A stretch of DNA of 62,080 nucleotides, the filler included, from Coriobacteriales bacterium (GTDB taxonomy: Bacteria > Actinomycetota > Coriobacteriia > Coriobacteriales > UBA8131), in assembly GCA_031263105.1 (NCBI GenBank). It is 10 parts of 10 records of this genome, joined end to end, with 100 filler letters (N's around TTAATTAATTAA, not from the genome) between each part and the next. Parts side by side here need not be neighbours in the genome. Positions count along the whole stretch, not along the records: positions 30,974 to 34,380 come from JAISGJ010000130.1; positions 34,481 to 39,177 come from JAISGJ010000140.1; 8 more parts are not named here. One strand, given 5' to 3'. Position 1 is the stretch's first letter. Each line of letters opens with the position of its first letter. Positions 33,001 to 36,000 of this stretch are shown in pieces. The position numbers are program-made.

Positions 33001-36000
33001 CTCCGCGCCTCCTTGAGGCGGATGGGGTCGCCGGGCCTGAGCATCATGACGGAGAGCATGATGCGGGCCATGTGCTCGGAGGCCTCCGGCATGCCGCGCT
33101 CGAGCCAGCGTTGGATGAGCCCGAGCAGCGCCGACGCGTAGTAGGCGACGTAGTACTCGATGAGCGGCTCGGGGTCCTTGGTGTATTTGCCGTAGAGCAC
33201 CGAGCGGACGAGGTCTGCGCAGATGCGGTCGCGCAGCCGCGCCTGGAAGGCCGCGTCGCCCCGGGGGCTGAGCAGGACGAGCAGCAGGGGGCCGTGTTCG
33301 CGCAGCAGGTCGAAGAGGTGCACGGTCACGGCGGGCGGTGCGCCCGTGCGGTTGAAGGCAAGCAGCTCCGTGAGGGTGACGGCCTGTATCCGGGGCTTGA
33401 GGGAGAGCAGGCTGGCGATTATCTCGTCCTCGAAGGAGGCGAGCAGGTCGGCCATGTCGCGGTAGTGCGCGTAGAAGGTCCCCCGGTTTATGTCGGCGCG
33501 CTCGGTGAGGTCGCCGACCGAGAAGCCGTCGAGCCCGCGCTCCCCGATGAGCCGGGCAAAGGCCTCGCGCAGCATGCGCTTGGTGCGTGCCGCCCGCCGG
33601 TCCTCGACGGGGCTCGCGGCCGGGGCGCATGCGCTCGTCAGCATCTCTTGGGGCATACGGTACCTTCTCCTGTAAACGACAGCCTGAACGATAACCAACA
33701 CATTGTCGGTTAACTTCCCCCCAGTATAGCGCCTCTGCCTCCTCCCTTCAAGGTATGGTATACTTCCTCTTCCGTCATCCTGCCTTGGTCGGTAACCAAG
33801 GCGAAAAAAAGGAGCTGTGAGAATGAGAAAAGGAATCCATCCCGACTACGTCGAGTGCACCGTGCACTGCTCGTGCGGCAACACCTTCACCACGCGCGCG
33901 ACCAAGCCCCAGCTTCGGGTCGAGCTCTGCAACGAGTGCCATCCGTTCTACACCGGGCAGCAGAAGTTCGTGGACACCGGTGGCCGCGTGCAGCGCTTTG
34001 CCGACAAGTTCGGGTCCGCCTCGTCCGCCGTCGCCGAGCGCGAGGCCGCCAGGCGCGAGGAGCGTCAGAAGGCCGCCGCCGCCGCCGAGGCCGCCGCAAG
34101 GGCTGCCCGTGAGGAGAGGGCCGCCGCGAAGGCCACCAAGGCCGCCCGCTACGCCGAAAGGGCCGCCAAGGCCGAGAAGGAGGCCATGGAGAAGGCCGCC
34201 GCCGCAGCCGAGGCCGCCGGTGCCGCCGCCGCCGAGGCAGCCGCCGCCGAGCTTGCCCTCGACCTTGTCCCCGCCGAGCCCGCCGATGCCGCCCCCGCCC
34301 CCGAGCCCCCCGCCCCCGCCCCCGCGGCCCCCCCCCCGCCCGAACCGCCCGCGCCCGAACGGCCGCCGGCACCCCCCACCNNNNNNNNNNNNNNNNNNNN
34401 NNNNNNNNNNNNNNNNNNNNNNNNTTAATTAATTAANNNNNNNNNNNNNNNNNNNNNNNNNNNNNNNNNNNNNNNNNNNNTGGCGAATAACATCAAATCG
34501 GTACCGCTGTATGCCGCTTTCTGCCTGGCTGATGGTCAGGGCAGTGCATGAAAGCCGAAAACCTGTCCAGCGAACCAATCCGGCCTGCTGCTGTCGCGCC
34601 GGGGCAACTCCAACGTTACTGTTCACACCCCACTGTCATCCCGAGCCTGTCGAGGGATCCTCGACCGCGCCAGCGGTCGACCGCAGGTCGAAGGGCCCTG
34701 CGACCTGCCGTTGGACACTGCGTGTCCAAAGATTCCTCGGCGGAGCTCGGAATGACAGTGGGGGTGTGAACTGTAACACTCCAACGGATACCGCATTAGT
34801 AGAGGTAGCGAAATACTTAACTGGACTACACGTAAACGCTAAAATGAACTCGTAGCTATAGCGAAAACAAGGTACAGTGAACGCGACGGGAATTATTGGA
34901 AGACACTTGCAAGGAGCAGAATTGCTAACGCATGATGGGTATTTACAAAGGCTGGCAGATTCCAGGGTTGAGCACCTCATGAAGTCATTTGGCGCTGATC
35001 AGGTTCACATGCCGTGGCGGATGGCCCGGAGCGCTGGCACTCGACGACGATGAGGCATTGGAGTTGCCAAGCCACTACATCGAGCTTACTGCTCAAGAGG
35101 ATATGAGTCGTATCGATGGGAAAAAACGCGACCCACAAAAGATTGAAAGGCTGTTGCGCTCGTTGGCTCGAAACAACATGGCACAGCCGTCAAACTCCAC
35201 ACTTATCGCTGACGCGCAAGAAGGCGGTTCCAAACCGCCGTTTTCTGAGCCAACTCTGATCGCCTATCTGGGCATCCTCAAGCGACTATATGTCATCGAG
35301 GACATAGCAGCATGGTCTCCTAAATTGCGCTCCCGTGCCCGGTTGAGGGTCATGCCAAAAAAGCACTTTGTAGATCCATCTTTGGCCATAGCTGCTCTAG
35401 GGCCACGCCGCAGCGGCTCAAAGACGACCTTAATACTTTCGGGTTTATGTTTGAGAACCTGGCAGTGCGCGATGCGAAGATATATGCCGAGGCAATTGGG
35501 GCAAAGGTATTCCACTGCCGCGACGAAACCGGACTGGAGGCAGACATTGTCGTCGAGAAGAAGGATGGCACTTGGGGAGCTTTCGAGGTGAAGCTTGGCG
35601 AGAGCGATGCAGACACAGCTGCTGACTCGTTGATTGCCTTAAGGAAGAAAATAGAGAGGCTAGGCGGCAGGCCCCCGCATTTTTGGCCGCTCTGTGCGGC
35701 GTATGCAGTTTTTCTTATACCCGCGATGACGGGATAATGGTTGTGCCCATAACTGGACTCGGGGTCTGACCTTCAGCCTGACGCTCGGGCCGGCGCTCGG
35801 GGCTGATTCCCCCAAAGCCCCATTTCGTGTAATGTTCTTGCTGACGCTGGAGTTTACTCAAGTGTCGTCCCACGTGTCATACGGGCCCCCTGCACAGGAA
35901 GGACACGCGTGATCCTGGTTTTCGCCTTTGCCAGCGCTGGTGAAGCGAGCACATTCGAATACCTGTACCGCAGGTACAAGAACCTCCTGTACCACAAGGC

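Follow-up and report, generated by a model that had tools for sequence, protein, structure and literature searches.

A miniature inverted-repeat transposable element with probable ISBst12-type IS66 termini and an inner hairpin module in a Coriobacteriales genome

We examined the palindromic repeat that is dispersed through the intergenic DNA of a Coriobacteriales bacterium (genome G000; assembly GCA_031263105.1) and found that it is very probably a miniature inverted-repeat transposable element (MITE) with ISBst12-type IS66 termini, moved in trans, which is built around a borrowed hairpin module and in which an 18-19-nt unit multiplies after insertion. The window, that is, the whole stretch of DNA analysed, comprises 62,080 nucleotides in which ten contigs of the 250-contig metagenome-assembled genome (MAG) are joined by N spacers; contig C6 covers positions 34481-39177. 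A first-pass annotation had described the repeat as a 163-bp palindrome with exact 8-bp direct repeats on both sides, and the copy on C6 bears this out, since it runs from 34615 to 34777 (163 bp) with ACTCCAAC on both flanks.

This complete copy belongs to the main subfamily, lies on the plus strand and contains no open reading frame (ORF). It is enclosed by a left target-site duplication at 34607-34614 and a right one at 34778-34785 (both ACTCCAAC, 8 bp, with no strand assigned). The left terminus, GTTACTGTTCACACC (34615-34629, plus strand), is probably an IS66/ISBst12-type terminal inverted repeat, and the right terminus, GGTGTGAACTGTAAC (34763-34777, minus strand), shows one mismatch to it. 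Each arm holds a hairpin module: GTCATCCCGAG-CCTGT-CGAGGGATC on the left (34635-34659, plus strand) and GTCATTCCGAGCTCCGCCGAGGAATC, read on the minus strand, on the right (34731-34756). The 18-19-nt unit that is multiplied in other copies consists of the CCCACT preceding the left-arm module together with the 5' half of that module. In this copy the inverted arms, 17 and 19 nt long, are 94-95% complementary. Between them lie three apical hairpins, found only in the main subfamily (34661-34729, plus strand; individually 34661-34680, 34683-34708 and 34711-34729), which show compensatory changes at model pairs 50/63, 74/89 and 103/109.

Insertion with an 8-bp duplication is observed at a paralogous empty site, which supports the earlier reading of the repeat as a MITE. 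There, the copy at C15 8449-8610 interrupts a member of another small repeat family; in the paralogues on C145 and C232 the element is lacking and CAGAGCTG occurs once. A contig from a second sequencing run, belonging to a relative that is ~5% diverged, bridges C85 6815-10374 without two of the insertions seen in G000 (78 nt against 432 in G000 at one place, 10 nt against 346 at the other); such insertions can serve as strain markers. Across the genome, the flank statistics reported before were reproduced: among 80 scorable left-right pairs of at most 400 bp, the 8-bp flanks were identical in 38 and agreed in at least 7 of 8 positions in 47, the match falling below 7/8 in the other 33. The effect is specific to this length, as it was not seen at other flank lengths from 4 to 11 or when the flank was shifted by 9 bp. 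The 38 perfect duplications are diverse and share no target consensus. The element is short and non-coding, with terminal inverted repeats, a fixed-length target duplication and an empty site; no autonomous partner with the same termini was found in G000.

The family is large. In the window alone, the unit CCCACTGTCATCCCGAG matched 34 times at up to 2 mismatches, against 0.02 expected from 100 shuffles, and in the whole genome we obtained the same figures as the first pass at this threshold (1321 matches, 336 of them exact, on 216 of 250 contigs). A blastn search with one copy gave 602 merged loci on 210 contigs, amounting to 57,251 bp or 1.97% of the genome, against the 551 loci and 1.75% given before; HSPs of at least 140 bp numbered 335 on 124 contigs, with both strands of the palindrome counted. 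With the 15-mer terminus at up to 2 mismatches we found 190 left and 201 right ends, compared to 2 in shuffled contigs, and these formed 88 left-right pairs with a modal length of 160-169 bp (30/88). The 163-bp consensus is itself a palindrome, and its arms pair over about 44 bp. Three long left-right pairs (2954, 3490 and 4010 bp) were considered as full-length elements; their flanks mismatch, and they are therefore separate copies. No unit lay within 60 nt of 39 of the 391 termini, which are mostly degenerate arrays or low-complexity contig ends, and as judged from the sequence output none of these 39 leads into a transposase gene. Conversely, for 364 of 868 unit runs a terminus could not be recognised within 45 nt; degenerate or broken arrays make up many of these, and some may be terminus-less palindromes. 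The longest runs count 10 units repeated every 18-19 nt, although array sizes taken from a short-read assembly may be wrong. Of the 500 contig ends, 172 have an element no more than 250 bp away, and the copy counts are therefore floors; the element breaks the assembly at a third of the contig ends, which explains the poor contiguity of these MAGs. The sequencing runs being Logan contigs, depth does not give a copy number, and the values in run X1 (about 25 in unique sequence, about 300-2100 in bins with the element) indicate many copies only roughly; run X3 contained next to nothing of the window.

Activity had been called both massive and recent. The second is weakened by the divergence of 160 aligned copies, whose median identity to the consensus is 94.2% and of which just 12 reach 97% or more. 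At about 6% from the consensus, the copies point to a burst that is not very recent.

The other copies in the window illustrate how the family has been nested, truncated and expanded. A nested pair occupies 47445-47870 (plus strand): the older copy has four exact 19-nt units in a row (47453-47526), and within its right arm sits a 161-bp copy of a second subfamily (47689-47849), whose insertion duplicated GCGTGGGG (47681-47688 and 47850-47857). Contig ends cut several copies, namely a copy at the end of C1 of which the left 119 bp remain (3717-3835), one at the start of C2 with its right 119 bp (3936-4054) and one at the end of C9 with its left part (57433-57564), all on the plus strand. Also on the plus strand are unit matches of the variant CCCACTGCCATCCCGAG near the end of C2 (11529-11692), a partial copy between two C6 genes (37199-37325), a unit run that extends to the end of C6 (39108-39177), and a near-complete copy (48869-49016, 148 bp aligned) located 520 bp downstream of the tmRNA gene. 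An arm with a four-unit run of period 18 lies on the minus strand at the end of C7 (42519-42641).

Folding of the palindrome raises the question of whether the copies are kept mainly for host use, as structured RNA, terminator, insulator or promoter, with mobility secondary. As a single strand, the C6 copy is predicted to fold into an arm stem of 44 bp that carries three hairpins of 8 bp at its tip, with calculated energies for 34615-34777 of -115.2 kcal/mol (RNA, z = -12.6) and -65.3 (DNA). Pairing holds in 95.6% of pair cells over 160 copies, and double-sided changes number 100 against 20-32 in slid controls. Copies are also enriched in divergent intergenic regions (46 observed, 28.6 expected), and more gene 5' ends than 3' ends face them (165 vs 95); these counts, which rest on crude gene calls, agree with the earlier statement that copies land on the promoter side, but the enrichment is modest and does not justify "mostly". 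Against a host function, copies show no orientation bias relative to neighbouring genes (84 vs 81), 156 of the 160 interiors are distinct, and repair within the palindrome can also make both arms change together. Rfam yielded no family at gathering thresholds over the window, nor at E-values up to 1 on two copy-containing loci. We consider it improbable that host use is the main reason for the copies.

The reading as an ISBst12-type IS66 MITE draws on full-length relatives elsewhere. The element termini, GTTACTGTTCAC..., bound 2.2-2.3-kb single-ORF IS66-family elements, and the 18-mer terminus occurs exactly at 23 loci in Bacillota, Chloroflexia, Bacteroidota and one Coriobacteriales MAG. Full-length elements measure 2192-2302 bp and contain one ORF of 534-575 aa that matches PF03050 (70-82 bits; the matches come from L035, L037, L039/L040 and L060) and NF033517 (145-183 bits). 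TnpA and TnpB, the accessory genes known from classical IS66, are missing from them; when ORFs of 120-150 aa or more were considered, the only further frame within the bounds of any of these elements was one of 158 aa in L037, which overlaps the transposase ORF on the opposite strand. One of the relatives, L060, is a full-length copy from a different genus within the Coriobacteriia family of G000; its ORF scores 183 bits against NF033517, above the cut-off of 180, and its flanks match in 7/8 positions. Among five full-length elements from other phyla, L037 alone has a clear duplication, TAAAGATT(G); L035, L039 and L040 have none at their flanks and L034 runs to a contig end. From the shared termini and the shared duplication length, we infer that the partner would be an IS66-family, single-ORF (ISBst12-type) transposase.

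This assignment can be compared with what is described for the ISBst12 group. ISDge4 of Deinococcus geothermalis, a member of the group, has the termini GTGACTACTCAGCA and GTAACTGCTCAGCA, one transposase gene and an 8-bp direct repeat, and transposition of ISBst12-type IS66 elements has been observed only recently, according to the accessible text of the report (PMC12898284). As far as that text goes, termini of the group appear to begin, like those of the element here, with GT(A/T)ACTG.TCA and are accompanied by an 8-bp direct repeat; counted by eye, GTAACTGCTCAGCA of ISDge4 and GTTACTGTTCACAC agree at 9 of 14 positions. Unlike ISDge4 and ISBst12 of Geobacillus, the element here is 163 bp long and gene-less, and no full-length relative lies in this assembly. 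The full-length relatives also exceed ISDge4 in size, their ORFs having 534-575 aa compared to 449 aa in the available part of its description.

The first-pass annotation was right that the transposase is absent: PF03050 and the L037 transposase each gave 0 matches in the assembly. Since no IS66-family gene was found in G000, the proposed enzyme is absent from the data. With a completeness of 86% and no contig shorter than 2.5 kb, the assembly could have missed a 2.2-kb multicopy insertion sequence. A search with the L037 transposase of 301 genomes across the class, in which G000 alone represents its own taxonomic family, found matches in 3 genomes, at only 24-25% identity and none with the termini. 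In some copies the two termini co-vary (model pairs 7/157 and 8/156), a joint change that is unexpected under a simple two-site transposase model.

The assembly does encode transposases of another type, and a REP/REPIN-type palindrome dispersed by a Y1 (RAYT) enzyme, already considered in the first pass, would account for a strongly palindromic element. Four PF01797 genes are present in G000, two of them long (264 and 286 aa) with a weak match. Such an origin is very hard to reconcile with the 8-bp duplication, as REP elements are not known to make target duplications, and with termini that match a DDE family; in addition, no Y1 gene is flanked by the element on both sides, and around two of the four it is absent for at least 2.5 kb. 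We regard it as the least likely of the explanations considered.

The burst had been described as species-specific. This holds for abundance, as 248 termini were counted in G000, and among 33 further genomes from its taxonomic family the highest count was 18 and all others were 5 or lower. It does not hold for the kind of element: MITEs with the same termini exist in other genera of the family and in other phyla, so that ISBst12-type IS66 elements, which are little studied, have given rise to MITEs in several phyla. Among 18 listed pairs of termini bounding short elements, which include the query copy itself (L044) and count one place twice (L005 and L018), the 8-bp flanks are perfect in 7 and match 7/8 in 3. 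Eight-bp duplications also occur at same-terminus MITEs that have no hairpin module. A metagenome scan with a 22-mer spanning terminus and unit gave 0 matches.

The multiplied units had been taken for transposase-binding sites. We find no support for this, because full-length autonomous elements are without the unit, and the unit is probably not a recognition site of the transposase. Its sequence makes up the 5' half of a hairpin with a covarying stem, GTCAYYCYGAG-loop-CGARGRRTC, of which G000 has 693 complete modules; 221 of 228 stem cells are Watson-Crick, whereas shuffles average 176 and do not exceed 189. From this hairpin the element reaches 20 nt further out, to the IS66-type terminus. 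Outside G000, 39 metagenome contigs (41-71% GC) contain the exact 19-mer, in most cases with no terminus; the 19-mer there builds the arms of gene-less palindromes 72-106 bp long. The inner arm module is also identical, in sequence and in covarying stem, to one at small free-standing GIY-YIG genes (PF01541) in many phyla. At 44 genomic loci encoding relatives of a small GIY-YIG protein, the forward half lies within 250 nt upstream in 23 and the reverse half downstream in 26, with both halves at 17, and just 10 motifs lie more than 400 nt away. Tandem half-units are likewise present in the palindromes and cassettes of other bacteria. The hairpin that flanks small GIY-YIG genes across phyla thus offers a testable lead on how tiny nuclease genes persist and spread.

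These observations could mean that the element is chiefly a gene-less derivative of a GIY-YIG cassette, spread by nuclease breakage and repair (homing, gene conversion), with the outer 15 bp incidental. The many unit runs in G000 that have no recognisable terminus would fit such an origin. Yet the duplication abuts the outer termini exactly, the module-less MITEs with these termini duplicate 8 bp as well, and 13 palindromes listed from other taxa show no flanking duplication. GIY-YIG cassettes carry a nuclease gene, have no IS66-type termini and show no evident 8-bp duplication, whereas G000 has no small GIY-YIG gene: its sole PF01541 match is the UvrC N-terminus, and tblastn found nothing. 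An origin by nuclease-driven spread is therefore unlikely. We put forward, more tentatively, that the module may be the end of apparently undescribed, phylum-spanning tiny selfish cassettes, which would consist of a ~90-aa GIY-YIG nuclease only and have gene-less palindromes alongside. The Coriobacteriia element might then be a hybrid in which the module was captured between IS66/ISBst12-type ends and gained a second route of spread, and multiplication of the half-hairpin might be inherent in the module, as unrelated bacteria show it too, and not due to the transposase.

For the IS66-type MITE, we propose the following course of events. An ISBst12-type DDE transposase supplied in trans would bind both termini (GTTACTGTTCACACC) and make staggered cuts 8 bp apart, and gap repair would leave the 8-bp duplication. 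With the hairpin module of GIY-YIG cassettes and palindromes inside each IS66-type terminus, this hybrid would have grown to several hundred copies, chiefly intergenic, in a termite-gut Coriobacteriia lineage and would since have decayed to about 6% from the consensus, the transposase gene being perhaps lost and perhaps unassembled. The unit appears to multiply in place, in one arm only and after insertion. Among 85 paired copies the left arm is expanded in 8, the right in 11 and both in 0, and perfect duplications flank 9 of 19 expanded copies against 29 of 58 unexpanded ones. The likely cause would be slippage in replication or repair, in which any direct half-unit could mispair with the single 3' half.

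Outside subscription journals, our literature searches returned nothing relevant on MITEs in Coriobacteri-/Eggerthel- taxa and, among the items listed, nothing relevant on GIY-YIG genes with inverted repeats or hairpin 11-mers; a search on MITEs and IS66 found no IS66-derived MITE among the items listed. For subterminal tandem repeats in bacterial MITEs, the literature gave eukaryotic work only. The assignment to ISBst12-type IS66 points to the family of the enzyme that would have spread a repeat now occupying about 2% of the genome of an uncultured gut symbiont.

Correia elements and Nezha are examples of bacterial MITEs. For MITEPsy1 of Pseudomonas syringae, mobilisation in vivo has been demonstrated, as stated in the accessible part of the publication (PMC3189936). 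Bacterial MITEs, MITEPsy1 included, are like the element here short and gene-less, with many copies, terminal repeats that match an insertion sequence and a duplication of the parent's length. The element here differs from other bacterial MITEs in its parent family, in a share of about 2% of the genome, which is high for a bacterium, and in an interior that is a second, unrelated repeat module. This hybrid build of a known kind of element is unusual, and it indicates that a MITE can combine parts of two unrelated selfish elements. Pneumococcal BOX elements hold an inner module in variable tandem number between fixed end modules; BOX is not known to have matching transposase termini or a regular target duplication. 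The element here resembles BOX in its modular build.

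The 163-bp element with inverted arms at window positions 34615-34777, on contig C6 (window 34481-39177), carries the same 8-bp repeat, ACTCCAAC, on either side. Its 17-nt unit (at most two mismatches) matched 34 times in the window, against 0.02 expected, and 1321 times on 216 contigs of the metagenome-assembled genome (MAG), with 336 of these matches exact, reproducing exactly the counts of the first-pass annotation. A blastn search with this copy returned 602 merged loci, amounting to 1.97% of the MAG, and the 15-nt terminus (at most two mismatches) occurred 391 times versus 2 in shuffled contigs. 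An element was also found within 250 bp of 172 of the 500 contig ends; the assembly breaks on this family and, therefore, all copy counts are floors. The last 119 bp of contig C1 (window 3717-3835) are the left part of a copy and the first 119 bp of C2 (3936-4054) the right part, so that the two may be adjoining contigs split within one element. Several contig ends (C5, window 34300-34380; C44, C93 and C220) are C- or G-rich, of low complexity and resemble degenerate unit arrays (CCGCTGCCGCCCCGG variants), which probably reflects assembler failure inside long arrays.

The MAG comprises 2.91 Mb in 250 contigs at 64.5% G+C (86% complete, 6.5% contaminated), ten of which, with N spacers between them, make up the 62-kb window, and all sequencing runs containing its DNA are labelled termite gut metagenome. 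An L31-Coriobacteria ribosomal-protein leader (window 33782-33814, 46.5 bits) agrees with placement in the Coriobacteriia. A tmRNA gene lies at window 47997-48346 (140.8 bits), with a near-complete copy of the element 520 bp downstream.

The element is a MITE that inserts with duplication of 8 bp of its target. Among 80 scorable left-right terminus pairs no more than 400 bp apart, the 8-bp flanks were identical in 38 and matched at seven or more positions in 47; the same pairs gave no signal at other flank lengths or with shifted flanks, and we found no consensus among the duplicated octamers. One copy (C15 8449-8610) interrupts a member of a second, roughly 130-bp repeat family, arranged as CAGAGCTG-element-CAGAGCTG; in the paralogues on C145 and C232, CAGAGCTG occurs once and the element is absent. 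This second family has about six copies (C145 18896-19045, C232 6-128, C15 8366-8666, C162 1-86, C230 26199-26282 and C120 14635-14711) and internal inverted repeats of its own; one member represents an empty site of the MITE, and the family had no Rfam match. Furthermore, an older copy is interrupted in its right arm by a 161-bp element of a second subfamily (window 47689-47849), which is flanked by a duplicated GCGTGGGG. The duplication contradicts a palindrome of the REP/RAYT type, as do the four Y1 (IS200-type) transposase genes of the MAG, two of standard size and two longer with weak matches (C168 12773-13138, C197 3704-4069, C191 3247-3579 and C165 2358-2645), none of which is consistently flanked by the element or has it on both sides.

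Outside this MAG, exact copies of the terminal 18-mer occurred at 23 loci (Lachnospiraceae, Anaerovoracaceae, Erysipelotrichaceae, Clostridiaceae, Chloroflexia, Cyclobacteriaceae and one Coriobacteriales MAG), most of which are other short elements, 120-250 bp long, whose interiors are unrelated. Over all loci, 7 of 18 short-element pairs had perfect 8-bp flanks, a number that includes the query copy itself and one place counted twice, and 3 matched in seven of eight. A Lachnospiraceae MAG (loci L032 and L034) contains a decayed autonomous copy, a 2293-bp full-length element with perfect termini and an IS66-family gene split into at least four ORFs. Its intact relatives, 2192-2265 bp long, share these termini and contain a single 534-570-aa ORF that matches PF03050 at 70-82 bits. 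PF03050 matches occurred in 5 of the 34 genomes of the window's own taxonomic family, and one of the five, G020, carries a 2302-bp element with termini GTTACAGGTCACACC, flanks matching in seven of eight, and a single 575-aa ORF (NF033517, 183 bits; 33% identity to the Neglectibacter ORF). A 2026 paper (PMC12898284) describes ISDge4, a member of the ISBst12 group within IS66, whose ends read GTGACTACTCAGCA and GTAACTGCTCAGCA and which has one transposase gene and a direct repeat of 8 bp. Neither PF03050 nor the L037 transposase as query gave a match to an IS66-family transposase in the 86% complete assembly. The putative partner can therefore be named by family only, as an IS66-family transposase whose gene was not found here.

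The units in the arms had been proposed to be transposase-binding sites. They are absent from full-length IS66-type elements and from Bacillota MITEs with identical termini. Exact copies of the 19-mer occur in 39 metagenome contigs (41-71% G+C), most of which lack the terminus, and the unit there constitutes the 5' half of the hairpin GTCAYYCYGAG-loop-CGARGRRTC. There the hairpin builds the inverted arms of gene-less 72-106-bp palindromes, at which duplications are not evident, and also adjoins a small GIY-YIG gene; tandem half-units likewise occur in unrelated metagenome contigs. Since IS66-type elements lack the unit and the module is widespread without the terminus, the element is a hybrid of IS66-type termini and a hairpin module, and its units are unlikely to be the binding site of the IS66-type transposase.

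Small GIY-YIG nuclease genes (about 90-100 aa) of many phyla are bracketed by the inverted hairpins (L077 731-1148, L069 and L110-L153). Across 44 genomic loci from many phyla encoding relatives of this protein, the forward half lay within 250 nt upstream in 23, the reverse half downstream in 26 and both in 17, and only 10 motifs were more than 400 nt from the gene. The stem covaries (ATCCC/GGGAT, ATTCC/GGAAT, ACCCC/GGGGT and ATCCT/AGGAT), with 221 of 228 cells Watson-Crick versus a shuffled mean of 176 and maximum of 189, and the 693 complete modules of the MAG show the same covariation. The element is not purely a palindrome of this GIY-YIG type: its termini, its target duplication and the absence of the nuclease gene contradict this, the only PF01541 match in the MAG being the N-terminus of UvrC. 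In the open literature searched, we found nothing on MITEs in Coriobacteriia, on IS66- or ISBst12-derived MITEs or on hairpin-flanked GIY-YIG cassettes. MITEs are a kind already known, and the hybrid build is unusual; as a lead, the GIY-YIG hairpin has the greater novelty.

Where the unit is multiplied, 2 to 10 units follow one another every 18-19 nt, and such runs are invariably placed between the terminus and CCTGCCGAGGGATC. A terminus was found within 45 nt upstream of 475 of the 868 unit runs in the MAG; 29 runs were cut by contig ends and 364 had none or a degenerate one. Most paired copies (52 of 85) had one unit per arm, with the left arm expanded in 8, the right in 11 and both in 0, and target duplications were equally intact in expanded and other copies, from which we infer expansion in place, after insertion. 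Tandem multiplication also affects the terminus itself, or a terminus-plus-unit block, in a few copies (C31 6578-6640, C47 near 3800, C78 near 5150).

When the copy at window 34615-34777 is folded as a single strand, its arms pair in a 44-bp stem that is topped by three 8-bp hairpins (-115 kcal/mol as RNA, z = -12.6). There are at least three subfamilies, with arms in common and different interiors. In 160 copies of the main one, 95.6% of pair cells were paired, and double-sided changes, including concerted changes of both termini, numbered 100 versus 20-32 in slid controls. Median identity to the consensus was 94.2%, only 12 of the 160 reached 97%, and 156 had distinct interiors; thus the burst, previously described as recent, is not very recent. 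Termini (at most one mismatch) numbered 248 in the MAG, 18 in the next genome and at most 5 in the other 32 of the taxonomic family, a set that includes no second species of the genus, and the hybrid build is present in another of the family's genera. When contigs of two sequencing runs were aligned to C85 (locus L063), a single contig of 2873 nt spanned C85 6815-10374 collinearly; it came from run X2, another sample from that study, and belongs to a relative diverged by about 5%. It lacks two MITE insertions, having 78 nt against 432 in the MAG and 10 nt against 346 at the places of the elements 7635-7967 and 9221-9502; the alignment ends are inexact, and this shows presence or absence of the element rather than an exact empty site. 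Depth over elements was also high in that run, suggesting that the expansion is probably common to close relatives.

Under a crude gene prediction of our own (2095 genes, 83% coding), 31 of the 602 loci lie within called genes, 170 between tandem, 135 between divergent and 41 between convergent genes, and 225 have a called gene on one side only or on neither. For the main-subfamily copies, orientation relative to the downstream gene was random (84 versus 81). The element may have a secondary role as a host-selected RNA, although this lack of orientation bias and the absence of an Rfam match speak against it. The gene ends facing the 160 main-subfamily copies were 5' ends in 165 cases and 3' ends in 95, and 46 of these copies lay in divergent regions, for which intergenic length predicts 28.6 (chi-square p = 0.0007). 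The preference for the promoter side, where the first-pass annotation had placed most copies, exists but is modest.
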